Source of the DNA: Psammoneis japonica
Taxonomy: Eukaryota
Direction of reading: 5' to 3'
Assembly: GCA_008632985.1 (NCBI GenBank)
Contig: QPGO01000272.1
Location: forward strand, 1-64,000
DNA: 64,000 bases
In this document: one piece after another, positions 111 to 64,000 of the stretch
Layout: each line of letters opens with the position of its first letter
Position numbering within the stretch: position 1 is the first letter of the stretch
Program-made: the position numbers and the translations under genes
The notes under the pieces: generated by a model
The model's input: the letters and a program-made list of their open reading frames with translations, nothing else
Told to the model about the DNA's origin: nothing
Databases searched by the model: none

Positions 111-386
111 TGACAGAAATTGAAGGCAAATGGCAAGAATTCAAACAACAACTCCTTACTGCTGTCTAAATGGCAGATGAGTCTCCGCTCAGAGACCGTC
201 ACAGGAGCCGAAAGACGTGTAAGTCGGCACAATCGGGCTACTGTCATTATTCTTGTGAGCCTTGTGGCTCGAAAGCAAACTACATCGCGCGCGAACGCGC
301 GGAACTAAAGCACACAAAACTGTGCGCGGTAAACTAAACAGCGCGCGACACTTCGCGCGCATCCAAATCCTGTTCAAATCCTGTCA
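111..386 (-). repeat. 3' LTR of the copia element
   Basis: Direct repeat of 6943-7218 with TG...CA termini. Confidence 0.95.
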
Positions 387-3300
387 CTCCCCAGTTTGCT
401 TGAGGAGCCACAGAAACAGATTCGACTTCGGATGGAATGAAGTTCCAGAACATGAGGGGGCGGAGAAGGTCCCAGATTTGGGAGCAACCCCAATGCTTGC
501 TGAGAATGTCAGCAGGGTTGCGGGAGCCTTCGATGAAGTGGAGCTCAAGGCAACCAGAGGCAATTGCCTCACGCACACGGTGGAACGACAGTGCGGTGTG
601 TCGCTTGTGTAACTTGGAGTGCGGGATGGTGGCACTGTCTACAACCGACTTGTTGTCACCGAACATGCAACCAACATTGCGGATCGGGACGCCAAGGTGG
701 CGCAGGGTGATGCGCAGGTCAACAATCTGCTCAACACAATTCCTTGCGGCAACAAATTCAGACCCGCAGGTTGCAGTCTCCACGGTGGCTTGTTTCTTGG
801 AGAACCAATCAGCCGGGAATTTGTTGAGGAAGTGGAGCATTCCCATGACAGAGCGTCCGGTGAGCATGCAATGGCACAAGTTTGCATCGACGCAGTGGGT
901 GGCAGTGACGAACTTGCCAAGGGGCGGTGGAGCGTCCTTCGGGATCATCTCTTCTGCTTCACCATGCACGGAATGCATCCATTCACAGGCCGGAGCAGGG
1001 AGATCCGAATGGTCGGGCTCTTCCGTGCGAACGCGGAGAGCACCGTGTCGCATCTTGGAGAGGTGCCCACAGACGCGTTTGGCACGATCCAAGTGGCCTT
1101 GACGGGGCGCAGCTCGGAAGCTAGAGAGTGACATGACGGCCGTGGTGATGTCAATTCGACCAAGGGACACTGCCCATTGGAGTGAACCAACAAGAGACTG
1201 GAACTTGTGAATGCCATCGGGTCCCAGCAGTTCGGAAGTGTCCAGTTCGGGGTGGTCACCCTTCTCCAGAGGTGACAGGGCGTTGGTGGCAGGTTTCTCC
1301 CCAAACAGTCGGGCGCAGCTGTCGACCATGCGCTCCATGCACTTGCGCGGAGACAGGCACAAGGTTCCGTCGGGGTCCCGGGAAAAGTCGCAACCCAGAT
1401 GGAACTCAATGGGTCCCGTGCCCTTGAGCTTGAACTTGTGCTTCTCCGTGAGAGTGTCAACGAAAGGTTGAGGGTCCTTCATGGCAATGGCGAGGTCATC
1501 CACATAAACGGCAATGCATTCACAGTGGTCGCCGTTCCTGCGCATCCAAATGTCGGGTTCGGCGCGGCAGGGGAAGAAGCCTTCAGCTCGCAGGCAGTCG
1601 GCGAAGCGTTCGTGCCAGCGGAGACCGGAGCTGCGCAGTCCATGCAGTGCCTTGTGGATGACAAGGATGTGTCCTTCGAGTTTGCCAAATTCGGGTCCAG
1701 CTGCAATGTAAAGCTTCTCCTTGGTGGTGGCCTCAAGGCAGGCATTGCCAATGTCGGTGGCCCATGTCTCCAGCTCGTTGAGTTCGGCCAGGAAAATCAT
1801 CAGCCGAAGGCCACGAAGGGAGACTGCTCCGGAGTGGACACTGTCGATGGGTGCGTCCGTGAGGTGCCCGTCGGCTGCGAGTCGTGCCTTGTGGCAACCG
1901 TCGTGTTTCACGTCGCACACCAGGTGCACTCGGATCTTCTTGTGTCCCGCAGGAGGAGTGGAAGACTTGAAGGGCCCACAGTCATGGAAGACTTCGTATT
2001 CGTCGAGTTGGTCCATCTCGAGATTAGTTGCGTCTCCCCACTTGCGGTTGCCGTTGCGTTCGTCCAGTGACATGGCGTGTTTGTAGTTCCGGGGAACTTC
2101 GCATCCGCACTTGCAGCGAGGTGCAGTGCGGAAGGAGCGAAGCTTGGCTTGGTTGGCCATGCGAAATAGTTTCTTTTGGCGCCTCGCGACAGTGCGGAAC
2201 CGCTTCCAGCCATCCGTGTCGAGGAGTCCGTTCTCTCGTGCATAGATGGCACAGGTGACGGGGTCGTCCTTGGCGATGATGGCAAGAGGCTCGGACGTGA
2301 TCTCCCCACTTTCCCGTTCAAGCATGATGTTGTAGCTTGAGCCTTTCCAGGTTGGGTCGTGAGGCTTCAGAGGTCCTTCGTGTGACACGATGCGTCGAAA
2401 TTTCCAAACAGTGGTGTCTTCGTCTTCTTGCTCAATGTGATTCATGATGTCATTGCAGGCAAGGACTTCCTCGTGTTCGTCATTGTTGACAGAGCAGACG
2501 AACTCAGTGAGCTCGGGATTGCCGTTCACTTTCCATTCGTGGTCTTCGACGGCCTTGACGATGCAAGCTCTGTGGCGTTGTCCGTCCTCTTGTGGCTGCA
2601 TGAGGAAGGTACGTCCAATGATGTCTTGCGGATCGAAAACTGGCATCTTGGGTGTCCTGATCTCCCCATCAGGAGAATCGACGGGGTTGTCGTCATGGCG
2701 AGATTTGATGATGGGTTCAGGTGGCTCCCCATCAGGAGGATCAAGACGCAGGTTGCGAACAGCAGGATCGGGGGTGGCGGAGCAAACGTTGGACCGGCAG
2801 AGGATCTTTTGAGTCTCGTCAGATAGGATCTTGAAGGTCATCTGGTGGCCGACGTGCTCAGCAATGCCAACGAAGCGTCCGCGCAACTCACGGGATTCGG
2901 ACGGCCAATCGGAGTCATCGAGGTGGAAGCACACTGGTTCCCACCAGTGAAAGCGAAGCAATGGGCTGATGTCCGGGGTGGATCCAGTGAGAGTCTCGAG
3001 GGGCGTGCGCCAGTGGAGACGTGGGGACGCTGTGTGGTTGAGTGTGAAGCACACGTGCATGAGCGCCAGCAGCCATGTGTGGGCGGGCGAACCAAAACGG
3101 TCCATGACAGTGTTCGCCATGCGCTTCACGGTCTGGCAGCGACGCTCGGCAAAGTTTTGGTGTTGCTGGTGAGGCTCACTTTGCCAGCTGGAGATGAAGA
3201 GGGCGCGCAGGATCCCGAGCACTTTGTTGCTGATCTCAACTTGAGCACGGTCGCCAATGAGTTTGGATGGGGCACCACGTTCACGGATCTGATCCTCGAG

Positions 3301-6003
3301 TGTGTTGACAAACTCTTTGTCCGTCTTAGTGCCGCAGACGTCAGTGACGGTAGACTCGGTGCCAACAAACAGTTGGGCGCTGGTGCAGCCAGAGTCGACG
3401 GCCGGGGTGTCGGCACAAACGGTGTCAGTGGCGACAGGCTCGTTGCGGCGGTGCACATCAAGGGCGGGGTTGGGTGATTTGCAGGCCTTGCGAAGGTGTG
3501 TGCCGGCGGGCATGCGGGCGTGCTGCGTGGTGCAGTCAAAAGTACGACGGACCGCATCGGCAGGCAGGAAGCCAAAGCAAGGCCAAAGAGACTCGAAGGG
3601 GGGGTCCTTGGGCTGTACAGTGCGCTCCGGAGGTGGAACGTCATCGCCCTTGGGGTCAATCGCATGCATGTGACACTCGTAGAACACGTCGTCGTTCGGA
3701 ATGAGGTGATCATCGAGGGCGGACGCGTGATCGGCAGACAAGGAAGCGGACAAGATGGTCTCGTTGACAACGACACGGTGACGGCAGTTGCCGCATTCGT
3801 CAAACAGGTTGGCAGTGGGATCGTCCTGCAGGTCAGAGATCGCGTCGCACCACTGGTCGTCGTCAGTGACAGAGTGATCGAGGACGGAAGGGTCCCATGT
3901 GTCATCACCGGTGAGGATGACATGGGGCAGGGTGTCCCATTCGGCGTCAGTGTAAGGTCGCATGGCAACATGAGGCAGGCCAGCCTTGATGTCAATGGGG
4001 ATGACATGGCCATCAGGAGTGGCGGTGCGTTGCAAGCCGTTGGGCACCTTGGCAGAGCGATCGTTGACATCCTGTTTGCACCATTCGAGCTGGCCACAGG
4101 AATGGATGGTCTTGCCCTTTCCCGTGCATGCGCACTGATGGAGGATGGCGATGACGGGACCACGCTGGGTCTCAATGACGGCACCAGTGGTGACAATGGG
4201 GATGTCCACCAATTGATGATCGTCAATGCCCTGAACGTCGACTTGGCGAGAGGTGCGTGCGATGACGCGGACGTCGTCGCCAGCAATGCCGCCGTTGGCC
4301 CCACGATCGACTAGAGCGCCAGTGCGTGTGGAGCGATGAGCAGAGGCAGAGCAAATGACATTGTGGTTGTTAACGCGGCGGCAAGTGCGGCCGTTAAGTT
4401 CTGTGTCATCTGCAGAAGCTGGCGGGGTAGAGGAAGCAGCGGATGGCCCCGGTCGACTGGCATTGGGGGCTTGGTTAGGAGACAACAGACGTTGCAGATC
4501 ACCGGGTGGCAGTGGCTTGCGCTTGGTGAGGTGCGCCAGGACAGGATTGTCCGAAATGGCGTCCACATGTGCAGCGGAGTCACCACAGTCAGCAGGAGTC
4601 GTGTTGGACAAGTTGACATCACCGTCACTCCCAAGGTGTTGGTCGTGAAGGTTGGCCGTAACAGACTCATGGCAGTTGCTGGCTCGCGGGTTGCGGGGAG
4701 GCGGACGAGAGTGCTCAAGGATGATCGCCTTGGAGGAATCGGGCAACGAATCCCAGAGCCGTTGGTGGTCGGGAGGGAGACGTCTCCATTGGACACCGGT
4801 GAGGCTGGGACCGCGGGTGCAGGCAGCATTGGCCTGAAGGACGTCAACGTCGCTGTCAATGTCGTAGAACACATCGTCGGACGGTTCCTCGGAGCAGACG
4901 TCATGTGCGTGTGTGGCGCGTCGGGGAGCTCGAGGTGTCGTCTTGGGTTGAAACGTGCTGTCGCACTGAGCTGCCGCGGAGAGGAGCAAGCCACAGCATT
5001 GATCGCATGTGAGGCTCTTGCCACTCTGCGTGCGATGCTGATCAGCTTGGTTCTTGACAGCACGGAGTTCCTCGACAGGGTGCACGGCATTCTCGAGCAT
5101 GACGCGCTTCTGTCCTTCAGAGAAGTGGTCACTGGCCGGGATGAGTGCCTCGTGCTTGCGCAACTGATCTTGCCAATGAAGGATGAACCCGTGGGTTGGA
5201 CCTTTCCAAGTGCCATCACCAAGACGCGCGGTGGTCAGGTGCGTGAGCAGGGTGGAGGACTCGACAGATGCGCGGGTGGAGGCAAGCGCGCACTCAGACA
5301 AGGAGCGGCAGACGGTCTGTGCATCAGAAGACCCCACATTTTCGCGAATGAGAGCCTTGCCCTTGTCGGTGAGAAGGATGCGTTCGAAGATGGCGAACAT
5401 GTGCTTTTGCTGTTCAGCAAAGAGCAGTTTGTCTTCGGGGCTGGTCGGTTTGTACGACGAGTCTAGAGTGCACTTGACGTCTTGGGCACGGGCTTGTGCC
5501 ACAAGTGAGGTGTGCCAAGTGCGCCACTGCTTGTCGGATTTGAGAGCCGTGAAAGCGGTGGGACCATGCTTGATGCCTCGCTTGAAGTCCCGCACCGGGT
5601 CGCGTGCCTTGGTCGGGTTGGTGACATGTGGAGGTGCAAGGGGTGAGCTGCCGATGGACACAGAAGACATGCAGTCGGGGCTGAGGCGGCAGGCAAGGAA
5701 CTCGTCATGCGTGAACAAAGAGGAGTCATTGGCAACGTCAAGACCTTTGTGTGCTTTGACAATGTACAGGCTAACTAGTGCTGCCAACATGTTCTTATAA
5801 CCACGGGGCAAAGGGATTGCATTGGTGCCGTTGTCGCACTCAAGCGAGTCGATTTGGGACGGTGTGAACGTGAACAGTTCCTGATGCGAGTCCGTGCCGT
5901 CTTGGGCCAAAGCCAAATGAAGAGGACTCCCAGCACCTTGGGCAAGCACGGTTCCAACAACGTGCTCGAAACCATCGGTTTGTTGCTGACGAGTGAGAAC
6001 CAT
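334..6003 (-). CDS. Copia gag-pol polyprotein (gag-PR-IN-RT-RNase H); open frame, probably inactivated by missense changes
   Basis: Protease LVDRGANGG; integrase ATDTV / GDRAQVE / QHQNFAER; RT KARLAADG, ALHGLRSSG, YVDD; RNase H VDAN, GSEF, FGDN, NPADILSK. First ATG is at 6003. The frame runs into the 3' LTR. Confidence 0.92.
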   Translation of the reverse strand: MVLTRQQQTDGFEHVVGTVLAQGAGSPLHLALAQDGTDSHQELFTFTPSQIDSLECDNGTNAIPLPRGYKNMLAALVSLYIVKAHKGLDVANDSSLFTHDEFLACRLSPDCMSSVSIGSSPLAPPHVTNPTKARDPVRDFKRGIKHGPTAFTALKSDKQWRTWHTSLVAQARAQDVKCTLDSSYKPTSPEDKLLFAEQQKHMFAIFERILLTDKGKALIRENVGSSDAQTVCRSLSECALASTRASVESSTLLTHLTTARLGDGTWKGPTHGFILHWQDQLRKHEALIPASDHFSEGQKRVMLENAVHPVEELRAVKNQADQHRTQSGKSLTCDQCCGLLLSAAAQCDSTFQPKTTPRAPRRATHAHDVCSEEPSDDVFYDIDSDVDVLQANAACTRGPSLTGVQWRRLPPDHQRLWDSLPDSSKAIILEHSRPPPRNPRASNCHESVTANLHDQHLGSDGDVNLSNTTPADCGDSAAHVDAISDNPVLAHLTKRKPLPPGDLQRLLSPNQAPNASRPGPSAASSTPPASADDTELNGRTCRRVNNHNVICSASAHRSTRTGALVDRGANGGIAGDDVRVIARTSRQVDVQGIDDHQLVDIPIVTTGAVIETQRGPVIAILHQCACTGKGKTIHSCGQLEWCKQDVNDRSAKVPNGLQRTATPDGHVIPIDIKAGLPHVAMRPYTDAEWDTLPHVILTGDDTWDPSVLDHSVTDDDQWCDAISDLQDDPTANLFDECGNCRHRVVVNETILSASLSADHASALDDHLIPNDDVFYECHMHAIDPKGDDVPPPERTVQPKDPPFESLWPCFGFLPADAVRRTFDCTTQHARMPAGTHLRKACKSPNPALDVHRRNEPVATDTVCADTPAVDSGCTSAQLFVGTESTVTDVCGTKTDKEFVNTLEDQIRERGAPSKLIGDRAQVEISNKVLGILRALFISSWQSEPHQQHQNFAERRCQTVKRMANTVMDRFGSPAHTWLLALMHVCFTLNHTASPRLHWRTPLETLTGSTPDISPLLRFHWWEPVCFHLDDSDWPSESRELRGRFVGIAEHVGHQMTFKILSDETQKILCRSNVCSATPDPAVRNLRLDPPDGEPPEPIIKSRHDDNPVDSPDGEIRTPKMPVFDPQDIIGRTFLMQPQEDGQRHRACIVKAVEDHEWKVNGNPELTEFVCSVNNDEHEEVLACNDIMNHIEQEDEDTTVWKFRRIVSHEGPLKPHDPTWKGSSYNIMLERESGEITSEPLAIIAKDDPVTCAIYARENGLLDTDGWKRFRTVARRQKKLFRMANQAKLRSFRTAPRCKCGCEVPRNYKHAMSLDERNGNRKWGDATNLEMDQLDEYEVFHDCGPFKSSTPPAGHKKIRVHLVCDVKHDGCHKARLAADGHLTDAPIDSVHSGAVSLRGLRLMIFLAELNELETWATDIGNACLEATTKEKLYIAAGPEFGKLEGHILVIHKALHGLRSSGLRWHERFADCLRAEGFFPCRAEPDIWMRRNGDHCECIAVYVDDLAIAMKDPQPFVDTLTEKHKFKLKGTGPIEFHLGCDFSRDPDGTLCLSPRKCMERMVDSCARLFGEKPATNALSPLEKGDHPELDTSELLGPDGIHKFQSLVGSLQWAVSLGRIDITTAVMSLSSFRAAPRQGHLDRAKRVCGHLSKMRHGALRVRTEEPDHSDLPAPACEWMHSVHGEAEEMIPKDAPPPLGKFVTATHCVDANLCHCMLTGRSVMGMLHFLNKFPADWFSKKQATVETATCGSEFVAARNCVEQIVDLRITLRHLGVPIRNVGCMFGDNKSVVDSATIPHSKLHKRHTALSFHRVREAIASGCLELHFIEGSRNPADILSKHWGCSQIWDLLRPLMFWNFIPSEVESVSVAPQANWGVTGFEQDLDAREVSRAV

Positions 6004-6931
6004 GGCAGACAAAAGTGGTGTCAGGACAATCAATTCTGGTTGGGAAGAGAAGGCAGACTCGAAACTTGGGTGAGAATAGACTTGACTTGAAATGGACTTG
6101 ACTTGAAATCTTGAACTATCTTAAAATCAGAAGTCGCCGGGCTTTGTCACCCCGTTCGTTGTCAAGTGCTAAACTTCCTGTCCGGTCCGCAGAGTTGTGC
6201 CGGCACGTCCGAACCCGCAGCCAGTGGCGCTTTGGGTTGCTTACGAGCGGAGTAGCGGGTTGTAAACCCCTGCAGGTAAGCTGACTAGAGGTGGACAAGA
6301 CCCCCGAACCGTTCTCATTTTATGTCGGTTGGATTTCCCGATCAGGCTGGCCAGTTGACGCAGGCGCCAGGCGCTGTGGACGAACGAACAAACGCGGGAA
6401 AGCACCCTCGCCCCAACACAGGCTGCAATCATGGCTGCTTGCTCTCACAGTCGTCCTCGTGGACCTAGTAGAACTGTAGAGCACCAGTAGTCCGGGGTAG
6501 ATCAGGTACAATGGACTCGGTGTGCTTGCAGAGTGGCAGCAAAACCGCAGTCCGAAGAGTGGGTACAGGTTCTTGGCCGTGAAGATATGTATATATATGT
6601 GTGTCTTCAGCGACGAAGATCCTTGAATATGTAGGGTTCTTGACCGTTAACCGATGAATAGGTATATCAAGGGATGAGGATCAAGGATAGACTTGGATAT
6701 GACCGTTGAATGTATGTCTTCAGCGATCAAAGGTAGTATAATCAATCCAGATATCCAGCGGTAAGGAGACTTGACGGTGACGTTAACTTCCTGCCGATGC
6801 CCTGGTATTGAATGCGCGTAGACTTGCCGATGTATGTAGAATATATACGGAGGTCCACGTAGAATTGAAATGGCGTCGTTGGTAAATCAACGACGACGAT
6901 GGCGGTTGCTCAATGGGTTGACAATGAGCAA

Positions 6932-6942
6932 GACTGTTAATC
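6932..6942 (-). promoter_or_regulatory. Putative primer-binding site complementary to a tRNA-Asn(GUU) anticodon arm
   Basis: Minus-strand GATTAACAGTC directly abuts the 5' LTR. Its complement GACTGTTAATC has the form of a GUU anticodon stem-loop. Confidence 0.55.
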
Positions 6943-7218
6943 TGACAGAAATTGAAGGCAAATGGCAAGAATTCAAACAATGACTCCTTACTGCTGTCTA
7001 AATAGCAGATGAGTCTCCGCTCAGAGACCGTCACAGGAGCCGAAAGACGTGCAAGTCGGTGTGATCGGGCTGCTGTTGTTGTTCTTGTGAGCCTTGTGGC
7101 TCGAAAGCAAACTACATCGCAGGCGAACGCGTGGAACTAAAGCACACAAAACTGTGCGCGGTAAACTAAACAGCGCGCGATGCTTCGCGCGCATCCAAAT
7201 CCTGTTCAAATCCTGTCA
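6943..7218 (-). repeat. 5' LTR of the copia element
   Basis: Direct repeat of 111-386, followed by TSD GAACA. Confidence 0.95.
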
Positions 7219-8495
7219 GAACAATTCGCATCGTCCACACCTTCTGCCACTGGCATGCACGGTCGTAATGCCAGTTCGACTCTTTGAACAGGGTGAAGGG
7301 CTCCTTCATCGGCCCACCTGCCATCCTCGTCATTGATGAGACAGGGATTCAGGAATGCGTTCTGGGCCAAATGCCTTGCGTGCTGTGGCGAGAAAGTCTT
7401 CTGAAGAGGAAGATGCGAGATGCTTGCTTACAATCTCTTTTGCTTTTGAATTGCGTTGCTCAATGTCATTGGCACAGCAGTGGCATGCCTCTGCTTGGAC
7501 AGGGTTGTTCACATTTGGGTGTGCCAGGAGGTCTTGGATTGACAACAACATCTCAGAAATTGAGAAATCGGTCTTCCATCGTGGGTTTGGTTTCTCTGTT
7601 GGAAATCACAGTGCCAACGCACACCATTCCAGAGCAGAAAACATTGAGGTGGTGAAACCCTCCGGAAACTTGAATGTTGGGTGCTCCTCATTTGTGGAAG
7701 ACCAAACCATGACCAAAGGAAACAACCCACCTTCCCAAGGCATGTTGGCAGGACCTTGAATTCCAAACAAAAGAGAGGGATGTGGCATCCCGCAAGTCAC
7801 AAGGATTTGGTCCGCGATGACACCGCAAGTCACAAATTGGCTGAAATCCATGGGGGTCACAAACACAAAAATCAAACAATGCATCTGGTTTGTGTCTCAT
7901 CCACCGCTGACAGAATTGTCAGCAATGCAAGTCAGCCAAACGCCGCTCAGAGATTGCGAGGATTCTCTGCTCACTTGCCTCCAACTTTTTCTCTTGCTCC
8001 CGTTCTTGGATTCTTGCATCCATCATGAGCTCCATGTGCTTTGTCATGTCACCAGCAATGTGCTTTGACATGAGTTTGTGGGGACAGCGGTGCTTGTGTC
8101 CCCCTCCACTCGTCTTTGCAGTGTGCTGCCTCCAATTGCTCATCTTTCCCGTCCAGTCACAACCCGCTTCTGCTGCTGCTGCATCATCGGGGTTTTGAAG
8201 AGTTGCAGATGAGTCATTGCTCTTGTTCGCTGACCCACATTTCACAGTCAACTTTGGCATGTGTGCATGGGGCTTCACACAAGAGCAAAGTTGTTGCGCA
8301 CAGCTTCGCAACAGGTGGGACATTCTTCCTTTTCCTCTGAGCACTGTTTCAAACAAAGACAACAGAACAAATGACCACACTTTGTCAGGACTGGCTCTTC
8401 CAAAACATCATGGCATGTGGCACAGATCCATTCGTCATCTGGTTTTGAGAAGAGTGCAACAGGAAAGCCCGTGGTGGATGGCGGTGCTGGCAGTG
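7219..8495 (-). pseudogene. RING (C3HC4) + TRAF-like Zn finger + UBC9-like E2 domain gene, frameshifted and interrupted by the copia element (3' end probably continues at 1-110)
   Basis: Manual minus-strand translation gives EWICATCHDVLEEPVLTKCGHLFCCLCLKQCSEEKEECPTC (~8290-8432), KLTVKC...GCDWTGKMSNWRQH, GIQGPANMPWEGGLFPL...FKFPEGFHHLNVFCSGMVCV and LLSIQDLLAHPNVNNPVQAEAC. Confidence 0.75.
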
Positions 8496-10619
8496 TTCAG
8501 TGCGACAAATCTTTGATCAATCATGCAGCACACAATGTGGCAACGGCTCCATTTTTCAAAAATCCTGTTCCTGTGCTAATCTGCACAAATTGGACATGTG
8601 TAGAATGCACAGCAAAATTTGCAGCAATCGATTTGAATTCACTCCGACACACACAAATGTCGTGGGCAATGATGCTGTGACGTCGCACATGACAAACAAC
8701 AACAACAGCCAAGTGGGGGGTTCTGGTGCACCAAGATGACAATCATTCTTTGCAGCTGAAGAGCTGGCTTTGCAAGACATGAACGACTTGCTGCCATGAC
8801 CAGAAATTGAAAATGGTGCCACAAGGCCGTGCAGCACTGCATGTGGAGTTGAATGACATGCCTCCTGTGATTGCAGCTGATGGGGGTGTGGATGGCAGCA
8901 GCAGAGAGCATCCCCAGTGCAAAAGGTGCAGTCATCTGTGTCTGGGCCAGACAGGCCAGGCAGAGGGGCTTTTTGCAGATGAGCAATTTTTGCCATGGAC
9001 ATGGGCGATTCTTCAGACTGTGCAAGAACGCTGCAGAGAGTGTGTCTTGGCTGAGCTTTGTGGTTGATGCACACAAGCAGAGATTGCAACCAACCCAGCC
9101 ATTTGTGCCATTAAAGACTGGCCCAAGAAGAAACAGACTCTGTCTTTGTGCCTCATGTGAAGTCAACAGCCGCCAGCGGTGGTCTCCAGCTTTTTCTTTT
9201 TCTCTTGCTCTTGCTTGCTGCTGCGCCACACTCTTTCTGAGGCAATCACCCAACCCCAAAAGTCACAGCAGCCTCTGCAGTTTGGATGTGTCCCATCTCA
9301 AGAAACAAGAGCAAAGCCAGCAAATCAGAATGGCTGGAAAAAGAAGGCACAGTGGCAGCTTTGCACCTTGTCAGTTCCCAAAACATGGGCTCCCCCCATT
9401 GCTCTGATGATGGGGTTGTTGGGTGAGGTGTGTCTGTTTCTGGTGCTGTTGTCTCACAAAAGCAGCAGCGGCGGGGCCAAGCATTGCAAAATGTGCTCCC
9501 TCCTCTTTCTTCAAAGTTCTCCCAAGCTCTTTGCTTGTTGTTGGTTCAATCACAAACAACACCCAGCTCAAGATGTGACATGCAATTTCCTTCTTCTTTT
9601 CCTTTCCCCACCCAACATTTCAATCTGAGGAGAGCAAGTGATGAGCCATCTCAATGGCAGCTCAACATGAGACAAACTGGTGCTTGTTTGCCAGGCAGTG
9701 CAGACCCAGCAGGAAAATCATCCAAAGAATTTGCCACATGAGAGCTCCCAGTGCTCGCTCTGAAGAGCTGGGCTTTGACTTGAAAACATCCTTGGTGTGC
9801 TCCCTCCCAGTGTCATGAGAAAGCAGCTGCCGCTGGCACAAAATGCACGCTAATGCACAGATTCCCTTCAGAGAGCTTCTGAGCAAATTTCGCATGGCAC
9901 AGCAACTCATTTCACAAGACCGGTCGGGCGGCAGAAAGAATCATCAGTGAGTCGTGGTCGATCCCGTTTCGCCAATCACGAGTCACATTGTCCGGGTTAT
10001 TTTGAGTCGTACCCAACCAATGAGGAGCATTTCAAATATCAGACCTTGTAGGTTCTTATAATGATTCCTCAACGGCAGGTCCGATCTGATCAGTGGCACG
10101 CCTCTTCCTAAATATATCGAGAAAGGACATTTGATGAACTAATTAATATCTTAACAATTATTAAATCTATATATTATATAATTTTAATATAAATATAAAT
10201 TTTTGGGTCTATAGATTTTGGCTTTCAGTGTCTGTTGTGTTCATCTCAACCTTCAATCTTGAATAATTATGAATAAAAGTCATACCAATAAATTTCCAAA
10301 ATTTGAATGTCACACCGCCAGCGAAAGGGAGGGGTGTCAAGGGTCACTCCGGAAAGGGATCGTATCTACGACTCAACTCAGTATGTTTTTACGCCGGACA
10401 TTGTAGCATCACGAGACACATACTAATCTTTCCCGTTCATCAGAAACAGTTCGCACATTTTGTACCAGTTCCTACGCGATCGCTACACAAAGCAAACGCG
10501 GGAAGAGCAATCTTTGCACAAAAACACATTCTCACTCACTGATTGATTCGCATCGTGCAGCCCCGTTAACCTCTCATTGCCAGCAGTCGTGGACCAGCAC
10601 ATAAAAAAACACTTGAGCA

Positions 10620-13033: not shown

Positions 13034-13446
13034 GTTTACACAAGGAATATATGTTTATGCACAAGATCTCTTGAATACATGTCCGCGGCTCTGAATAACA
13101 AGGAGGTGCGATTCATTACTCTATTTAGCGCTAGCGCATCGATGATGTATAGAATGTTTGTTTATCAGCTTGAGTGTATTACCGTAGTTATTATTGGTAA
13201 ACGGAATGAGGATCTTCGTCTTCGTTCATGCCCCTGTGTTTTTGTTCAATGGGCTTCTAGTAGCGTCGTGGTTATCTCACTCCACACATCCAGTCATTTG
13301 AGCCATGCCGGAACGTAAGAGAGTGTTCGACCCATCATCTACATTGAGGATAAAAAACAAAACGAGAAGCAAGGAACAAACGCCTCAGCAAAAGACAGCT
13401 TCAGCTAGTAGGGCTTCTCTAAAGTAGGGCTATACAGTGTTGTAGA

Positions 13447-13750
13447 ATAAGAAACATATTATATCGTTGTGCTAAGCTTTCGACAGAATTGGCTTTGGTG
13501 CGGTAGATAGCATCCACACTCTAGAGAGTAATAAGTAGAAAAATAATATCGTTGTCGCTGATAGTCTAAGCTTTCGACAAAATGGGCTTTGATAGATAGG
13601 ACTCACACTCTACTAGTAGTGCCACCTTTGGCGCGGTAGACAGCATCCACACTCTAGAGAGAAATAAGTAGAAACAGAATATCGTTGTCGCTGAGTAGTC
13701 TAAGCTTTCGACAAAATGGGCTTTGATAGATAGGATTCACACTCTACTAG
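13447..13750. repeat. ~130-bp tandem duplication (two copies plus a partial) between convergent genes
   Basis: GCATCCACACTCTAGAGAG...TAAGCTTTCGACAAAATGGGCTTTGATAGATAGGA repeated at ~13495-13620 and ~13626-13750. Confidence 0.85.
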
Positions 13751-14023
13751 AGTAGAGGTCTAGCTAGTAGAGAGAAATAAGCATCTACTACCAAGGAAAA
13801 AAAAACAAGAAGATAACTTTGGAACAAGAAAACAGGATTTTAGACTTGGTTCCGAGGAATCGCCTGAAGAAAAGCATTAATGAAGAGAAAATACTGTAAT
13901 GAAAGATCCGCGCAGCGATGACCATGAATGGCGGGCCAATCCAACAAATCTGGTTTGGACATGCTTAACAGGTATCGCCTGGACTAATTAAAGATCCGCT
14001 GCAACGACAAACGCTCGTAGCAA

Positions 14024-15736: not shown

Positions 15737-16172
15737 ACTTAATACTTCTTTTTAACTTGATGGAGTCGCGCAAGTTATGGCTCTAACATGTACCGTACGC
15801 TTTTCGTCAGAGCAATTTTTGAGCGAGGTGATTGGGCCCTACTCATTTTATGGTGTAAAAATACTTGACAACAAGGTGATCAGGCTTCTCAAAATGGAAG
15901 GGAATTTGCGCTCGTTCTGGCTCAGATTCTTCTCGTACTGTAAATCTGTAGAATGACGAGGTCGCAATTTCGCTAAATCATGACGATGTTTTCAAAAATA
16001 CTTTGTCCCGACACAATAACGGCCGCGAACACCGTTGTTGCGTTGGCGCTGCGGATTGATTTTTCTGTTGCTTTTTGTGTTCATTCAAAACTCAAACACT
16101 CAAAACCCAACCACCAAACGAAGGTCGTTGTTCTTTTGCTGGTACGGTATTGTTGCGTTTCGTGTAGTCAAC

Positions 16173-35950: not shown

Positions 35951-36061
35951 GAGAAGCAAGCCAACTTGGTGGAGTCTTGGCACCAGGTGGTGGCTCAAGA
36001 GTGCACGTCATTGTGCAAAGCTGCTGCTTGTGAGGCGCCAACCAAGAGCAGCAGCAGTGGT

Positions 36062-44264: not shown

Positions 44265-44265
44265 G

Positions 44266-52600: not shown

Positions 52601-52731
52601 ACGGCAGATACGAAGTGTTCGTGAGAGCAGGATGTGATGACAATGCACAATTTCACTTCAATGATGACTCACATTGGAACAGAATCACAACGGCACAATG
52701 TCCCGCGTTGAACCAATTCTGGGTCAAATGA
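46675..52731 (+). pseudogene. Giant single-frame ORF (one in-frame TGA at 48433-48435): DUF6589-like putative DDE transposase followed by a RecQ-like SF2 helicase
   Basis: FAFDNSQ, YVVGDSLS, PAPGDLHVEFH, DVVEMVN. Helicase motifs AFQRDAV, QPTSGGKS, VVPLLSV, FDEVH, FGLAFRRDF, MTAT, AGAGLD, QELRRAGR, CGNACPHC. Confidence 0.7.
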
Positions 52732-55369: not shown

Positions 55370-57468
55370 ATGGCGCGAGTAACGAACAAGACGAGGAGAA
55401 GTTGAGATTTTGCCATGGATGTTGCCAAACGTTCCGGAAACTTACCTGAAAAAAAACACCTTGTTTGTAGGGAAAGTGCCGTGTTTGTAGTTGGTGAACC
55501 TATCCGGTAACCTAACCGGCCGATGGTGTGGTGGATGCCATTCTGCGGAAGGCGCAAGTTGGGGAGTGGGGAGCACAATGTCACGTGTCAGGATGTGAAA
55601 CGAGAAGAGGAAGAGCACTTACATCAGAAGTGGAAAAGAGCAAGAAGCAAGAACCATTTCCAGGCATTTCTTTTGCTCTAGCACTTTGCTTGTTGAATCC
55701 GAGAAACGCGAGAGTCACAAGAGCAGCACCAAAAGGCAACTAGAAACAAGAATCGGACGACTACATGGTGGTACTCGAGAAACGCTATCAGGACACGGCT
55801 CGAAAGATTGAAGCGTGGCAAGAATTGGAAACCAAAGAGTGCGCTGCTGCCGCCGCTGAAGTTTTAGACGCTTCTACTCCAATCGATATTGAGGGAATCA
55901 AGCATCTTTCATCCAAGAATTTTTTGGTGTGGAAGAAGACACACGGTCGATGGAGGTGTTTATGAAGCTGCATCGCGGCGAGGCTTTGAAAAGGTTTTAG
56001 AAGAGTCCAACATCCGAGACATGTTTCCAGACTTGACGGTACGCTTCTTTCAGAATGGAGTCGCGTTTGGACGGGATTTGGTATCGGAACGACTGTCTTT
56101 GAATGCTCCCACATTTGTTGGAATAATTACAGGCTCGGCACTCGTTATGGGGTGCCGAGCGACAGTGACAATCAAAGATATCATTGTCGATGCCAATGTT
56201 GATGGGGTGTCGCCATGGAAACAAGTTGCAGGGACTTGGTGTACAGAAAGCATATTATGAAATGAGCAGGTATGTCTATCACAAAAAGCACGCCACGGAT
56301 ATCGTCAATTACGCCAATGGAAAATACAGCAAGACTCAAATCGATTCAAACGGGATGGAACTCCCATTACTAGAGAGTGATTCTCGCCGGATACTCTCTT
56401 GGTGGAGGGTTAGCTCAAGTTGCACACCTTTGCACGAGAGCTCCGCCGGATCATCGTGGATCCTTTTGGACTAAACTTGTCGGAGCGTTGAAGGACGTCG
56501 ATATCATAGCCATTGCAATCTCTGCGCTCGTGACGACAGTCTTGGACAAGCCTTCCGAGGATGCTTTAAGCTTTTTACATGACTCGATTGAACCTTATAT
56601 GCGCAACGTTGTGTTTAATGCTGACGTTGTACCAAGAGGATACTCGGATGTTGAGTTTCTTGATTACTTTTTGAATGCCTTCCTGGACGATGCAACCAAG
56701 GCGTCGTCTGACGTTGCTTCCGATCAGTTTGCCAGGTCCTTCGTCAATTTGCATTTGAGTTTCGTCAATTACGTCAACGGAAAGTACAGCAAGACCCAAA
56801 TCGATTCAAATGGGATGGAACTCCCATTACTAGAGATTGATTCTCGCCGGATACTCTCTTGGTGGAGGGTTAGCTCAAGTTGCACACCTTTGTACGAGAG
56901 CTCCGCCGGATCATCGTGGATCCTTTTGGACTAAACTTGTCGGAGCGTTGAAGGACGTCGATGTCATAGCCATTGCAATCTCTGCGCTCGTGACGACAGT
57001 CTTGGACAAGCCTTCCGAGGATACTTTAAGCTTTTTACATGACTCGATTGAACCTTATATGCGCAACTTTGTGTTTAATGCTCTGACGTTGTACCAAGAG
57101 GATACTCGGATGTTGAGTTTATTGATGACTTTTTGAATGCCTTCCTGGACGATGCAACCAAGGCGTCGTCTGACGTTGCCGATCAGTTTGCCAGGTCCTT
57201 TGTCAATTTGCATTTGAGTTTCTTTACAATGAGAGGAATGGTGTAACAAGCCAAGCTCTGTCGACATGTCGGTAAGCTCATTTATTACGACAAACCGGTC
57301 TCTGTGCCGGTCTTGTATGTGGATAGTTCAAAGGAAGCGGATGAGGAGCGGTTCTGAAGCTTAAGATATGGTCCCAAAACCAAGGTGGCAGATGCCGCCT
57401 TGGAAAATTACATGGTGTTGGTCTCTGGACCGCGACTTGCAGCAAGCCCGGCTACGTCTGCGAAATAA
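55370..57468 (+). pseudogene. Class 3 lipase-like gene, copy 3, with an internal ~460-bp tandem duplication (56302-56761 / 56762-~57220)
   Basis: GYSLGGGLAQ segment present twice; in-frame stops and frameshifts. Confidence 0.78.
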
Positions 57469-58769
57469 ATCAGAAGCGTAATGTTGCATCCGACAGTTAG
57501 TAGAGGGAGGGTATTCATTTTGCTTCTACCGGTCCCTTGGGAAATGCAGTCAACAAGAGCTTTTCCCAGGACTGCGACTCATGGAGGAAATGAATAAGTC
57601 TTCGTGCCGTTTAGCTCAGGACCATGCAAAAACGAGACCACGACGTACAAAAGGCATCGATTTGCGCAGGAGAGCAACGAGAGACAACGTCTCGAGGAGG
57701 AAGCGGAACGACGAATGCCCAAGCGGGAAGATTCAATCCGTGATGAACTTGAATTGGCGAAAGTCAAGTCTTCTTTGGACAACAAAACACGACATCGTCG
57801 TGTAGAGCTCTCTGCGGCTACGTGGAATCCATCAAAGCAAGATTGAACTTAGTGGCTTTTTCCATAGCACTGTTTGTCCTGGACGAGACGACGAGTTAGG
57901 ACACCCTTCTGCAGCAAAGTAGATAGACTACACGAAGACCTAGTGGATGTGGTGGAGATTGCAAGGGAGACTTCTCATGCAGGATTGAAAGTAAGTGGCC
58001 GCTCTTCTCAAAATGAGCTGCACATCCATGAAAAAACAGTTGAGGCGAAGCTTTGACTCGTCGACGCCCTAAAAGAAAAATGGTTCCAGGCGAAACCGTG
58101 GCAAAAAAAGTAGAGGCGTAGCTTTGACTCGACGGCGCCCACAAAGAAAAATGGTTTCAGTCGAAACCTTATTTGGTTCAATGAAGTGGTGTCATTCCCG
58201 TTGATGAAGAGGACAATGGCTTTCTGTCGACAAGCGACGACCACTGGGCAGATTGGATGACTCCACACATCTACGGAAATGGCCAACTTGGGAGAAGCCA
58301 CCGAATGGCTTCACGATTTTGTCGTCGACAGTTGAGCTGCCGGCAGACACTTCGCCTCTGTAGATGCAACAAGGGGTGAGCCCGGCATCAAAGTTCGAAG
58401 AGCGATCCAACAGGACGCTCCGACGCCACAGCAGGAAAACAACATTGAAGAAGGGCACATGAACGACAATGGCATGCCCAATGCCACTCCCGCCATCGAC
58501 AGTGCTAGAACTCGGTTTCCGTGATTGGTTCATCGAAAGGATAAACGGTTTGTCCTTTCGGGGTGTTAAATCCGTGCCATTGACAGTGCGCGGCTTGGCA
58601 GACAGCGTTGAGCAAAAAGACTCATTTCGTTTTCAATTCAAAGATGCAGAACATTGACTTTAGTTGCCACTTCTCAATGTCAGGCAATGCTCTCAAAGCC
58701 AGCATGTCAAATACGAGTGTGATTATTTTGCCACATCACGAAGACCAACACAGAGGCAAGCAGAGTCGA

Positions 58770-60470
58770 AAATGCAATTTTTGCTCATGTGGGAGTGTGC
58801 AAGGCTCAGAAGATGTCGCCGTTGTGCTGTTGCTCCTTGAAATCACCAGAGAGCTTGTGCTCCTCACAGCAACACACATGCAACTCATTGTCTTTGCCGA
58901 TGAGCTTTTCGCCCCAGGCACAAAGGTGCCAGTGGATTTGCTTTTTGCAATCCTCTTTGTGGCATTCGTGAGGCAGGTGTCCCGGAAACGGATGCTTGCA
59001 GTGCTCACGCAAGCAACAAAAAGAAGGGAGCGTCTCATCCTCCGTTGGCGGTGCGTCTTCCTCCTCATCACTTCTGGGACACACGGCATTTTGTCGCATT
59101 TGGCAACATTTTCTTAAAAATGAATTGATGGTTTGTCGTGAAAAGACGCGAATTGCGACAAAATGTCTGGGTTGGCGACAAACGGGACAGAAACATTGTT
59201 CAACCAAGTTGCAAAATGATCAATGTCATCATTTGCAAACAACCTGAATGTTTGGCGATGTCGTTTCAACAAGTGGGGCAATTGACAGAATTTGGCGATC
59301 GACGTCATCGACGAAAATTCATCCGACAAAATTTGTCGTGTGCCACAAAATTTGTCGCACCTGACAAATTTTGTTGGATGTCCGACAAATTTTGTCGGCA
59401 TGCGACACGACATGACACGACAAGACAAGACACGACAAGACACGACAAGATGCGGCGCGACACGACGACTCACGAATGAAACACCCACGCCCCCCGCACA
59501 CGCCAACCGACCGCTGACGTCTCCGTTGACACTGCCGGTGTGTCTCTTTTGCACGATGATGCAAAGCAACGATCATGCTGCTCTCGGCGGTCTCCATGCT
59601 CTCGTCAATGCTGGGACAACATCGCACGCTTCTACATGGTGCAACGGAATGTGCCGGCATGCGTTGTTGCGCTGCACCTTTTGTCAGTGCGACTGGGCAC
59701 TTCTGAATGTTGGGGAGCATTGCGTCATCGGCATGTCGCAAACGTCCATCTGTCGGCGTTTGTCGGCTCTTGTCGGTGTTTGTCGCACGTTGTCGGGGTT
59801 TGTCGGATGCGACAAAATTTGTCGTGCATCCGACAAAATTTGTCGCACGTCCGACAAAATTTGTTGCATCTGACAAAATTTGTCCTGTCCGACAAAATTT
59901 GTCGCACGTGCGACAAAATCGCCAAAACATCAGTTGATGAGTGCAGTCTTCGCCGAAAGCCAAACTCATCATGTGGCGCTGCAGTTGACACAACGTCTGT
60001 GTTTGGGACACGCCATCGCCAATTAAATGATGATTTTGTCTTGTTTGTCGCCAACGGCCAAAATTTGTCTCAAAGGGCGTTTTTCACGACAAATCGTCCA
60101 GCTCATTTGTGGGAATGTCGCAATTGGCGACAAAATGCCGTGTGTCCCTGCCCTGGTCCACCATGACCCAACCGCAGGGTCGCTGCCGTCAGTGCGTGCT
60201 GGTTCGAGCGGCATTGCCGGTGCAGGTGTCGCCGACGTGGAAGTTTCGTCCAGAAACGCAAGCAAGTCATTTGAAACGGCACCCGTCAGTGCGGAAGGAT
60301 CGCCAGTGAGTTGCGCCGCCGTAAACTCGGAAGATGATGCCACCTTGAATCTGTGTGGAGTTCAATTGAGAAACGGAACATAAAATGTGAGTCAGCACAC
60401 AAGTGGACAGAACGCCACCAAGCGCCACACGGTGTGCATGCTAAAGTGCAACATGACAGCATGCACTCAC
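58770..60470 (-). pseudogene. Coiled-coil/Zn-finger gene, copy 3, disrupted by a MITE and TpA-mutated
   Basis: Colinear with 23600-24445 on both sides of the 59077-60147 insertion. Confidence 0.75.
59077..60147. mobile_element. ~1.07-kb non-autonomous TIR element, PIF/Harbinger-like
   Basis: TIR GGACACACGGCATTTTGTCGC / GCGACAAAATGCCGTGTGTCC; 3-bp TSD CTG; empty site visible in copy 1 (~23908 TTCTGGCCTGGTCCACC); internal arrays of the palindromic CGACAAAATTTGTCG motif. Confidence 0.85.
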
Positions 60471-60764
60471 CCGCAACTGCAGCGACCCTCACTTCTCACT
60501 TGCTCTCTGGTGTGAAAATGACAGCAGTTGTCAGGAGCACGTCATCAGTTGTGGGTGCTGCAGCAACAGATTCAGCAGATTTGGCTGCAAAGCCAGTCTC
60601 CCGTTGGTGTTTTGCTTCTTCGCAGGGCGCCGGCAAGCGATGAGCGCCAGCCACATGCACAATCCTGCAAACAACTGGCGAGAGCAAGCAACAGCTGAAG
60701 CCAACCGTCACCGGCCGAGGACATTTTTGATCGGCTGAAGGACAAGTCTCAAGGCGCCAACCAT

Positions 60765-61000
60765 CTGCTGCAAACTTTTCGAGGACAACTCGGCTGCACT
60801 CGCAATCGTGAAGGTGCGCCTGAGATGCATCCAAGAACGCGTCACATCGACAATGTCTGTCACCATTTTTGCTCTGAAGTTGCCAACAGAAGCCTGCTGA
60901 TTGAGGCTGTTGGCTCCAAACTCCAGCAAGTGGACTTCCCAATGAAAATGCCGGACCTGTCGTTGTTCATCCACCGTTGCCTGTCTGTGCAGGGATGGCA
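60765..61000 (+). mobile_element. Fragment of a second copia lineage (RNase H C-terminus)
   Basis: CKLFEDNSAALAI...MHPRTRHID..CHHF.SEV...QGW matches the copia FEDN...RTKHI..YHHFR motif. Confidence 0.7.
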
Positions 61001-62699
61001 ACAACTCGGACATTTTGGCGTGTGAGAATGTGTGCACTCCCGTGGTGTGCATCATCATGCCACCAAGTCCTGTGTGCCACAATGACCCTTCAGAAACTGC
61101 CATCAACTGCCATCAACAACTCGCCCAATCAGAGATCAAGAAATGAATGAGATCGGAGGTCTGGGGTGCAATCGAGAACAGAGCCTCACCTCCATTCTTC
61201 TTTTGTGCAATCATCAAGAACTTTTTGTTCTGGGTGAGTCTTCACACCATGTTCATCTGTGTTGAGTTTGGCACAAATCACTTCTTGTTCTCTGCAAATT
61301 CTTGTTGGTTTCCAAGTGGAGTGGTTTTTGTTCTCACAATTTGGTGACTGGTCAATTCGCAACTCCCAGGTTGTCCACTTTGCCATTTCCATCTCTGCGG
61401 TGCAAACTGATGCATTCCCACACAAGAAATGCCATCAAGCTGGGAGTGATGGAGAACATCATTTTGCCATCATTCCACAAAAGGAAACTGTGGAACAGCA
61501 CAGCTGATGAGTGCAATGATGGCGGGAATGTGGCCAGAGAGCAGTGCCTCATTTCCAGAAATCTGCAAGATTGGCTGAAAAGAAACAAAAAAAAGAGATG
61601 CGCGCGCATTTGAGTCTCAAGCTCAAATGAGATTCTGGACAAAAAAGCGCAGCTCAGACAAAACATAAACTGCAGCACACATTGGATGCCAGACAGAGTT
61701 CCAGTCCATCAGAGTGTAAACTGGGCAGACACGCTGCACGTGCAACTGCAGTCAAAATCGAGCCAAAGCAGATCACCTCTTTGTCATTTTTGGGTCGATT
61801 GATTGAGTTCCCAGAAATTGCATCCCAGCACCAACCACCATCTTGGGGTGGATTGGATGGCTTTTTCAAGTGTCACCTCAAGATTTTGCAAAGTTCGCTC
61901 CCTTGCTGAACTTCATGTTGGTCCCACCTTTGTTGCAACAGAGCTTGTTTGCACAACACACAGTGGTTTCATTTTGTGGAAGCTGAAATTTTTGTGTGAG
62001 CATTTGTCAGCTGCTGTGCCACAGTTGTCAGTGGCACATCATTGCAACAGGCAGAGGCTGGGTGTCGGGAATCCAAATGTGCATTGACGTGCAATGCTGT
62101 CTTTGCATGCCAGGCACCCTGCCCGGTGATTGGCTGCAGGGCGCTTTGCTGTCCCCGTCCCCGGGTGCGAATGCACGCGCGGTTGTTGTCCCGGCATCTG
62201 AGATTGACGGTGCAGCTTGCTGAGCACTGGCTGCATCTGCTGGTCTAAAATGACTGCCAGTGTGGTGCACAAATGAAGTTGTTTGTGAGCTTCACTGCTG
62301 GTGGCAAGACACATCACAATGCTGCATGATCTGCCCTCTCCAGATTTTCTTTTTTCTGGTGCTTTTCCACATTTGTGAGCACATTTTTTCATCATGAGCA
62401 CGCAATGGCATTCAAGTGGGATGTGGCACCACAACCGTGTGACAGTGATGGTGCTTTGGCTGTCTTGATGCCAGATGTTGAGGTTGTCTGGGAGCAGGTG
62501 GTCAACATTTGGTCCAGGAATTTGGAGCGCAGCTCAAGCAGGGCTCATTTGGAGTGTGGTGCAAAGGGGCAGACCAGCACCATCCTCCTCCCACTGGGGG
62601 TGCCTGGAGCTGATCTAAGACAAAGGGATGCATGATCCCCTCAGGCAATGATGAGTTGCCTGTGACTCTCAGCATGGCTTTTGCCATTTGTCAGCCAGC

Positions 62700-63193
62700 C
62701 ATGCACTTTGTCAAGCAACACACCACCCTCTTGTTCCGCCATGTGCGAGAGGCGATTGCCTGCAGTTTCCTCAAGTTTCATTTCATTGAAGGTTCCCACA
62801 ACCCAGCTGACATCCTCAGCAAGCACTGGAGCCACTCCCAGGTCTGGAACTTTCTTCATCCTCTGATGTTTTGGAGTGTCAATCCCAAGGCTTTCAACTG
62901 ATCCGATTTCAAATCTGTTGCTGTTGACCCCTCAAGCAAACTGGGGAGTGACAGGATTAGAAAGAGATTTTGGTTTGCCACATGTGATTGTGTGTGCTCT
63001 CAGTTTTGCGTGCAGTGCGCAATGCAGTTTGCTTTCAAGCCACATGGCTCACAAGAACAACAACAGCAGTGCCGGTGTCATGACACCAGTCTTTCTTCTC
63101 CTGAAATGGTCTCAGCACAGAGACTCATTTGCCACTTAGACAGCAGCAAGGAGTCATTGTTTTCTTCCACCCACTCATCTTCAATTTCTGTCA
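62700..63193 (+). mobile_element. Truncated relative of the 111-7218 copia family: RNase H end, PPT and 3' LTR (62949-63193)
   Basis: FRHVREAIA...FIEGSHNPADILSKHW; CCTCAAGCAAACTGGGGAGTGACAGGA identical to the first element; ends TTCAATTTCTGTCA. Confidence 0.88.
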
Positions 63194-64000
63194 TGAGGTC
63201 AGGACGCAGAGTCTGAAGGTTCATTGCAAGTGTCTCCTCACACATCTTGGCTTTCCTGTTGGCTGCTTCATGTTTCACTTGGCACAAAACATCCTTGTGG
63301 GCTGCTGAAGCAAAATCTGAGTGGCCACAAAGTGAGCCCCACATCACATGGAAGAATGCAGGAGCACTCACTTCACATTTTTGGGTGCAGACTTCATTGG
63401 ACAAAGGATGAATGGTCCTGAAAATTTGATTGGGAGGGCAGACAGGGCCATTCTGTGGCTGTCATCAGCCAAGGTCTTGCCATCTGATGCCGGATTGCTC
63501 CGCAAATGTGTGTTGCCAGTTTTTCTTTTTTCTCTGACAATTTTTTGCTGCATCAAAATTTTCAGCTCTGTGGCAATTGCACAAGGAGGTTCAAGGTTCA
63601 AGGCAGGTTTGAGGGCAGTGAGTGGTGATGATTTCCCTTTGCGTCTGCTTGTTGGCGCACATGTGTGCTGCACCATCGCAGCCAGCTCTCAACACTGCAT
63701 GGGAGGTCTGTCCTTTCCCTGCCGTTTGCTTGAAACAAACAGTGAGCTTTGTTGACTGCACAAAATCAAATGTTGCAAGTGCAAGCAAAAGCAGCAGGAG
63801 GGCTTCAAAGGGGCAAGGTCTGTGTTTTGGCCAAATCATTGTGAGCTGTGACATGGATGCACAAGGGCAAAAAGAGACACAAGCACAACAATGATGTGTG
63901 CACAAATGAGCGCTGATGATTTGGCTGCTGCACTTGATTGCCTCTCAACCAAGGTCTTTGTGTGACAGTGGAGGTGCAATGCAACATGTTGTGTTGGCAT

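Follow-up and report, generated by a model that had tools for sequence, protein, structure and literature searches.

The stretch of DNA analysed here (the window, 64,000 bp) covers positions 1 to 64,000 of contig QPGO01000272.1 in the assembly GCA_008632985.1 of Psammoneis japonica. In this window, a real and locally confined process has probably turned almost every TpA dinucleotide (TA) into TpG (TG) or CpA (CA) in silent, mostly transposon-derived DNA. The depletion of TA is itself real and confirmed. Among the 1,136 TA steps of the window, only 114 lie in the DNA masked as depleted (density below 1.2 TA per 100 bp), which represents 37,654 bp or 59% of the window (3.0 TA per kb; observed/expected ratio, obs/exp, of 0.05), versus 1,022 in the unmasked 26,346 bp (38.8 per kb; obs/exp of 0.58). 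The Poisson probability of the masked count at the host rate is numerically 0. An initial annotation of this DNA had named a series of blocks as nearly free of TA, and both the blocks and their limits stand: the obs/exp per kb is 0.00 to 0.22 inside them and 0.3 to 0.9 outside, and the re-derived limits differ by only about 100-200 bp.

The blocks are near saturation, with TA obs/exp values of 0.02 to 0.12. In bins of 250 bp, the TA count switches abruptly between 0-2 and 5-27, and the majority of the block edges are step-like; for instance, the final TA before one repeat is at 17731 and dense TA is found again from 20405, and other edges are placed at 24854 and 29417, at 33532 and at 53515. 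Both products are raised in masked compared to unmasked DNA (TG 1.62 vs 1.18; CA 1.63 vs 1.17). The stop trinucleotides TAA and TAG fall to 1.2 and 0.9 per 1000 trinucleotides, versus 9.2 and 8.7 outside. Since the change of TA to TG or CA makes no stop codon and destroys TAA and TAG, long overlapping frames are found on both strands of the depleted DNA. The depletion falls on transposon, repeat, captured or adjacent host-derived DNA, and the genes and spacers retain TA.

The direction of the change was determined from seven alignments, each between one TA-normal and one depleted or part-depleted copy (3,412 columns), chosen from 48 high-scoring segment pairs (HSPs); two further overlapping pairs were excluded so that each depleted site counts once. 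The depleted copies display 111 TA-removing transitions and 7 TA-creating ones. The remaining A>G/T>C changes (109) are about as numerous as the C>T/G>A changes (98), which indicates no overall bias toward GC. The TA-normal copy was taken as ancestral, an assumption supported by this 16:1 asymmetry and by a thin three-way parsimony (855 usable columns) between the host paralogue segments A (20450-24800), B (29350-33532) and C (53450-58200), where ancestral TA is lost at 7 of 24 sites in C, 0 of 19 in B and 3 of 25 in A. When all intra-window HSPs are considered, 7 of 89 TA sites are conserved, 35 read TG and 30 read CA; the apparent losses of AT, AC and GT are side effects of adjoining TA. The polarised alignments thus agree with the initial annotation, which had claimed a directional change of TpA to TpG/CpA, and they argue for a directional change rather than an inherited composition. 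In every block TG is about equal to CA and the two outcomes alternate site by site, without processive tracts. It follows that both DNA strands are targeted and that the events are single and non-processive.

The change depends on both neighbours of the adenine. The rate of A>G is 111/317 after T, versus 52/543 after A, 52/508 after C and 31/455 after G, which is the excess at TpA over other contexts that the initial annotation had proposed to look for. The context analysis comprised 156 TA sites (TG at 51, CA at 45). Of the TA steps in which a single one of the two adenines, counting both strands, has a 3' C, the conversion falls on that adenine in 36 cases and on the other in 11 (p 0.00035); a 3' A has the opposite effect (9 vs 27). 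A separate set of sites, 24 lost tyrosine codons (now TGC 11, TGT 4, CAC 5 and CAT 4), displays the same preference for a 3' C (13 vs 2). In bulk composition, TGC/GCA is raised by 12.2 per 1000 versus 4.2-6.3 for the other TGN trinucleotides. The converted adenine is therefore preferentially that of 5'-TAC-3'.

The effect on proteins is clearest in a copia (Ty1-type) element on the reverse strand, whose gag-pol frame of 1,928 amino acids (337-6120) matches RVT_2 with an E-value of 2.7e-21 and has 45,874 homologues. The interior of the element (about 400-5700) has a TA obs/exp of 0.12 with CpG intact (0.91). The first 120 codons or so, the leader of about 0.8 kb and the 5' long terminal repeat (LTR; 6943-7218) form a TA-normal part (5750-7218, reverse strand; obs/exp of 0.67). 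The 3' LTR (111-386, reverse strand) is a direct repeat of 276 nt with 94% identity to the 5' LTR, and it retains 9 TA in 276 bp; six TA are common to the LTR pair and four are missing from one copy. The median tyrosine content is 3.8% among the best 150 copia homologues versus 0.7% in the window frame. From 20 homologues, 16 columns with Tyr in at least 70% of the sequences were selected; the window frame has Tyr in 3 of them, Cys in 7, His in 5 and Phe in 1. Among the other conserved residues, Pro, Glu, Lys, Ser, His and Gln are kept at 100% and the remaining classes at 60-97%. The homologue consensus sequences GNAYLEA, KALYGL and ATYGSE have Cys, His and Cys, respectively, at their Tyr positions in the window. 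The initial annotation had noticed that conserved tyrosines read Cys or His and had counted tyrosines by eye, and both observations were verified, with 13 Tyr in the 1,928-residue frame, 3 in a frame of 1,431 residues described below and 14 in the 575-residue transporter of the major facilitator superfamily (MFS). Since invariant tyrosines are lost, this copy of copia was not under selection. The copia depletion also coincides with the stop-to-stop frame 337-6120, a circular observation from which nothing was inferred, because stops return where TA returns.

A similar loss is seen in the largest block (37350-53400, forward strand; TA obs/exp of 0.05-0.08), which extends over 16 kb and contains a 597-residue open reading frame (ORF; 46642-48432) and the 1,431-residue ORF (48436-52728). 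The latter has a single homologue (P0123, 58% identity), and the 16 tyrosines of this homologue align with Cys (8), His (4), Phe (2), Lys (1) and Val (1), so that none is kept. The changes V>A (13), I>M (6) and I>T (4) between the two proteins are those expected from GTA and ATA codons. Apart from this specific loss of codons containing TA, both the copia and the helicase copies are thus well conserved. The C-terminal half of this ORF is RecQ-like (Bloom/RecQ helicases, E-value 9e-8; Helicase_C, E-value 0.015). The 16-kb block is probably a large DNA element, and the region 46642-52728 may represent a so far undescribed type of large DNA transposon that carries a helicase.

Host sequence is the origin of two depleted stretches. 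In the first, a depleted block (24855-29416; 9 TA in 4,451 bp) has captured at 26686-27572 a copy of the 3' part of the gene encoding a leucine-rich repeat (LRR) protein; where the host sequence at 16871-17702 has TA, this copy reads TG or CA. The second corresponds to the distal part of paralogue C (58.3-60.6 kb), which gives segments 58270-59077 and 60250-60593 of the last depleted block (58250-64000). The loss of TA along paralogue C is graded toward this block: ancestral TA is kept at 18 of 20 sites at 56.77-57.23 kb, 17 of 30 at 57.26-57.68 kb, 6 of 16 at 57.71-58.09 kb, 6 of 29 at 58.27-58.72 kb and 0 of 5 beyond. An inverted repeat provides a further comparison. Compared with arm b (36818-37213), carried by a TA-normal island (36759-37249), its arm a (36062-36458), at the end of a depleted block (33600-36700), shows TG or CA in place of TA at 24 sites; the reverse holds at one site. 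The two arms have 24 CpG in common.

The loss of TA is separable from and independent of CpG decay. The CpG obs/exp is 0.57 in masked DNA versus 0.99 outside, and the seven alignments display 71 CpG losses versus 26 gains, but the CpG depletion is present in most TA-poor blocks and not in all. Deamination of 5-methylcytosine (5mC) at CpG also ends in TpG/CpA and has left its trace in most blocks of the window (CpG obs/exp of 0.20-0.70). However, it cannot remove TpA, and the copia interior, region 58250-60700 (TA obs/exp of 0.09, CpG of 1.03) and arm a are depleted of TA but not of CpG, whereas the other blocks have lost both.

A signature of this kind has already been described, and the window appears to be a further case of it. 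Mettrop et al. reported in April 2026 a TpA-restricted hypermutation of integrated DNA of nucleocytoplasmic large DNA viruses (NCLDV) and virophages in Bigelowiella natans (bioRxiv 10.64898/2026.01.13.699255). In this preprint, 231 mutations were gained in two viral regions in lines sequenced with Illumina, 230 of them A>G or T>C changes, each located at a TpA; in some lines, such mutations arose de novo at a rate of roughly 1e-7 to 1e-6 per site and generation. The B. natans genome also contains clusters of TpA-poor, CpA- and TpG-rich windows enriched in reverse transcriptase (RT) and DDE domains, and the authors propose a deaminase of the ADAT2 type (bioRxiv 10.64898/2026.01.13.699255). This preprint supersedes the statement of the initial annotation that no such pathway was described. 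Both systems have in common A>G/T>C changes at TpA giving TpG/CpA and a confinement to delimited regions surrounded by ordinary DNA, clear in the window over its 64 kb, and the process acting in the window appears to be of the same kind. They differ by the host (a chlorarachniophyte of the Rhizaria versus a diatom-like stramenopile), by the targets (viral insertions with 3.3% of TpA left versus transposon and repeat blocks near saturation at 0.02-0.12) and by the data, since the mutation rates were measured in B. natans and the window offers a sequence signature. The main text of the preprint mentions no 3'-neighbour preference, no graded edge, no relation to CpG decay and no diatoms (bioRxiv 10.64898/2026.01.13.699255). 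In the literature covered, which leaves out subscription journals, diatom transposons were not found to be described as TpA-depleted, and a 2025 preprint on diatom transposons (10.1101/2025.10.24.684338) mentions neither dinucleotides, TpA, hypermutation, RIP (repeat-induced point mutation) nor deaminases.

In the proposed explanation, the adenine of TpA would undergo A:T to G:C transitions, whichever strand it is on. These would accumulate singly, without strand coordination, on chromosome-resident DNA and could extend over about 2 kb into neighbouring host-derived DNA. The conversion of TpA would be faster than, and independent of, CpG decay. Its coding effect would be the replacement of Tyr by Cys or His, of ATA by Met or Thr codons and of GTA by Ala codons, together with the removal of TAA and TAG, and it would be unable to create an in-frame stop. 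We give a little less than an even chance to the agent being an adenine deaminase of the TadA/ADAT2 type that acts on DNA. In bacteria, TadA edits UACG sites of mRNA, changing UAC Tyr codons to Cys codons (PMC11472039); it has thus U or T before the target A and C after it, and in the window the target A requires a 5' T and favours a 3' C, but the preference of TadA for G at +2 is absent (13/44). No deaminase with a cytidine deaminase (CDA) fold is encoded within the 64-kb window. The natural TadA and ADAT2-3 enzymes act on tRNA and RNA loops and not on chromosomal DNA. The initial annotation had offered two mechanisms, and the adenine deaminase is compatible with the 5' T and 3' C, whereas the second, an error-prone repair discussed below, fails.

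The best-surviving alternative to a deaminase, to which we give a small chance, places the chemistry on the thymine: a TET/JBP-like enzyme would modify T in the TpA of silent DNA (e.g. to 5-hydroxymethyluracil, 5hmU) and the change would be fixed as T to C through mispairing or faulty repair, with 5'-GTA-3' as motif. GTA>GCA accounts for the strand-choice data exactly as well as TAC>TGC does. In dinoflagellates, TpA sites are enriched in hydroxymethyluracil; fungal transposon families of the DUF6589 type are linked to TET/JBP genes. For the 597-residue ORF, no homologue was detected at near lengths, and the Atlas gives a weak lead to fungal DUF6589 clusters, with a recognition below the usual level. 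However, no TET/JBP domain was found in the window ORFs of at least 110 residues, 5hmU:A pairs are only weakly mutagenic, and no sign of such a base in diatoms emerged from the analysis.

It is improbable that the elements arrived already depleted, having lost TA in the transposon lineages or on extrachromosomal or pre-integration DNA, with nothing acting at the locus. The step-like edges of most blocks fit such an arrival, as does the comparison of 17745-18489 with 63280-64000, where 152 TG/CA sites agree and 5 disagree. So does the copia interior, far more depleted than the LTRs although the LTRs date the insertion; moreover, 10 of the 28 residual TA inside copia are Tyr codons of the gag-pol frame, a hint of selection during the loss. 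Against it, the host-derived LRR fragment and paralogue C are affected, the latter with a graded edge of 2 kb, and the two inverted-repeat arms differ by 24 TA losses. Discordant TG/CA sites are also present between copies, including 9 sites between 45629-45873 and 46056-46302, and the invariant tyrosines are lost from a copia copy that was not selected. The mutations of B. natans arise in resident single-copy DNA.

A sequencing or assembly artefact, with a modified base of TpA called wrongly and turned into TG or CA by consensus polishing, is very unlikely. Strand-specific miscalls might produce a strand-symmetric TG/CA mix, and the platform is on record neither for the assembly nor for the sequencing run X1. 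However, two X1 contigs (767 bp, 25288-26054; 616 bp, 28527-29142) show no difference from the corresponding TA-free stretches, which contain 2 TA each (TG/CA 75/86 and 68/48). Such exact matches rule out a consensus artefact, though not every read-level one. The X1 word depth on these TA-free contigs is 28-32, versus 57-121 on host-gene contigs. The same kind of damage was found outside the window: metagenome assemblies provided 80 related copia loci, with a median TA obs/exp of 0.70, and three of these loci, each from a different assembly, are damaged in this way. Locus L047 has 3 TA in 2,766 bp, is saturated over its whole length and keeps 1 of 23 conserved Tyr (His 11, Cys 5); L075 keeps 5 of 21, its depletion lying mainly in 1-1180; and L065 keeps 12 of 23. 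The last two obey the 3'-C rule (10 vs 3). Three of 150 cluster representatives of copia proteins (P0206, P0261 and P0240) are also nearly free of Tyr. The exact X1 contigs and the equally damaged metagenome loci make an assembly artefact unlikely, and neither the 3'-C rule nor the 2-kb graded edge is expected from miscalling. The process in B. natans was seen live in Illumina data.

Two observations on the reads concern the haplotypes and the gene models. The X1 contigs differ from the window in host genes (12 of 633 positions at 12407-13039; 9 of 544 at 14149-14692), where the contigs of the run X2 have 0-1 differences; these X1 differences and the depth of about half suggest a high heterozygosity or haplotype-specific blocks. 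The X2 contigs skip 10717-10857 (139 bases) and 10909-11147 (237 bases) with GT..AG ends, so that X2, listed as 'DNA?', looks like cDNA and the skips like two introns of an expressed gene upstream of the DUF6824 ORFs. X2 leaves the TA-free blocks almost uncovered, which was not taken as evidence on expression.

Error-prone patch repair in silent chromatin by a Y-family polymerase of the Pol eta type, the second mechanism of the initial annotation, has a very slim chance. The mutation motif of such polymerases is WA to WG, and A to G after T falls within it. However, the rate at ApA given above is not above those at CpA or GpA, in contrast to TpA, and AA is kept at 78% over all HSPs where TA is kept at 8%; since ApA is not raised, the WA-type signature is excluded. 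The least likely reading, in which an ADAR-like enzyme would hyperedit A to I in double-stranded RNA of transposons before its reverse transcription into DNA, has for it the 5' U preference typical of ADARs (bioRxiv 10.64898/2026.01.13.699255) and the fact that the best-identified block is a retrotransposon, but it is contradicted by the interleaved and equal TG and CA on both strands, by the effect on host gene fragments, an inverted-repeat arm and the helicase-bearing element, and by the graded edge of paralogue C.

The comparison with fungal RIP bears on how the process would be aimed. Both are dinucleotide-specific transition storms that riddle transposons and leave sharp compositional blocks. 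RIP makes TpA from CpA and creates stop codons, whereas the process in the window removes TpA and cannot create stops; RIP needs duplication and mutates both copies, whereas here two of three host paralogues and one of two inverted-repeat arms (arm b) are spared. Paralogues A and B are 81-97% alike over kilobases and retain TA (obs/exp of 0.67 and 0.59). Because these paralogues and arm b are spared, duplication alone is insufficient as a trigger. The 'reverse RIP' of the initial annotation is therefore right as to the opposite direction and misleading as to the trigger. The graded edge and the spared repeats suggest an aiming by chromatin state and not by homology.

Several points weigh against the explanation that we prefer, a local conversion of TpA acting on resident silent DNA. 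The retention of TA in the copia LTRs and leader is unexplained by this model (TA loss of about 20% in the LTRs versus about 80% inside). The 152 concordant versus 5 discordant sites cited above imply that this part of the loss predates the separation of the copies and possibly took place elsewhere. A transposon domain was recognised in no block other than that of copia, and for several blocks no origin was identified. The run X1 probably comes from the same sample as the assembly. Concerning the context, A>G in TAC is inseparable from T>C in GTA on the opposite strand, L047 departs from the TAC rule (3 vs 5), and the missing +2 G sets the window apart from the UACG of TadA. Finally, the enzymatic step is purely an inference, and the process may be a by-product of silent chromatin rather than a defence.

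The remaining blocks and the host segments complete the description of the window. A Pfam transposon domain was found in only one of the seven blocks, the copia one, among 109 ORFs of at least 110 residues, and the blocks other than those identified here gave no Pfam family. Within the 64 kb, a mobile origin is indicated by the copia domain, by a high-depth repeat and, likely, by the helicase element, and host-derived sequence is affected too. Of the targets named by the initial annotation, the LTR copia element and the host-derived sequence are thus retained; its YR element, said to have His for the catalytic Tyr, was not recovered, as no tyrosine recombinase was detected with Pfam (E-value up to 0.01 for 109 ORFs and up to 5 for 10 ORFs). 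The high-depth repeat (17745-20404) has 3 TA in 2,651 bp and a CpG obs/exp of 0.20; its X1 word depth is 370-2,080 versus 66-134 over the host genes at 10.0-16.7 kb, and its family is also represented at 63280-64000, in the last block, next to a depleted LTR-like copy (62712-63195, reverse strand). The block 7250-9900 has a TA obs/exp of 0.04 and a CpG obs/exp of 0.33, with no Pfam match in its ORFs of at least 110 residues. Inside the block that carries the captured LRR copy, region 26009-26675 has a summed X1 word depth of 68,035, versus about 45-2,080 in the other bins, and corresponds to a very high-copy repeat. TA-normal islands exist within transposon territory (111-386, 5750-7218 and 36759-37249): either something protects them or they are younger.

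The host genes with Pfam matches are grouped in a TA-normal region (10000-17731; obs/exp of 0.62) that contains DUF6824 ORFs (11226-13033, forward strand), the MFS transporter of 575 residues (14027-15751, reverse strand) and the LRR protein (16020-17396, forward strand), whose gene has internal tandem repeats at 16272-16798 with a period of about 168 bp, 85-91% alike. These genes look diatom-like: the DUF6824 domain is present and the best named relative of the MFS transporter comes from the diatom Odontella aurita, although the best identities are of only 57-60%. The paralogous host segments are in tandem, with 77-97% of similarity in parts over 20800-24800, 29250-33560 and 55200-58200 and beyond; only the third extends into a depleted block. 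Segment B contains a Rad60-SLD ORF (31732-32583, reverse strand), and a lipase-class-3-like ORF is located at 21608-21997 within these tandem paralogues.

TA-free domains have practical consequences. They mislead gene finders by long spurious ORFs in several frames, and they conceal transposons from profile searches, as illustrated by the single block of seven with a Pfam transposon match. Compared with B. natans, the window adds a stramenopile host, the saturation of transposons, the TAC rule, the independence from CpG loss and the spread into host-derived DNA. No natural enzyme is known to deaminate the adenine of chromosomal DNA, and the adenine base editors were obtained by evolving TadA. 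If real, a natural mutator of DNA adenine with a preference for TAC would thus be relevant to the biology of genome defence and to genome engineering. A wider reading, which we hold as tentative and on the whole unlikely, is that diatoms and chlorarachniophytes share a natural, chromatin-aimed DNA adenine deaminase with a TadA-like TAC preference that slowly removes TpA from silent mobile DNA. Under this reading, Tyr codons and, by extension, TATA boxes and AATAAA signals would be disabled without new stop codons, and the process would represent a second class of mutational genome defence, independent of RIP and widespread in SAR (Stramenopiles, Alveolata and Rhizaria) algae. Already if the process is what it seems, diatoms would be a second major algal lineage with a TpA-specific hypermutation of mobile DNA, at saturation over most of these 64 kb, and an observation from one species would become a possibly widespread eukaryotic mechanism.

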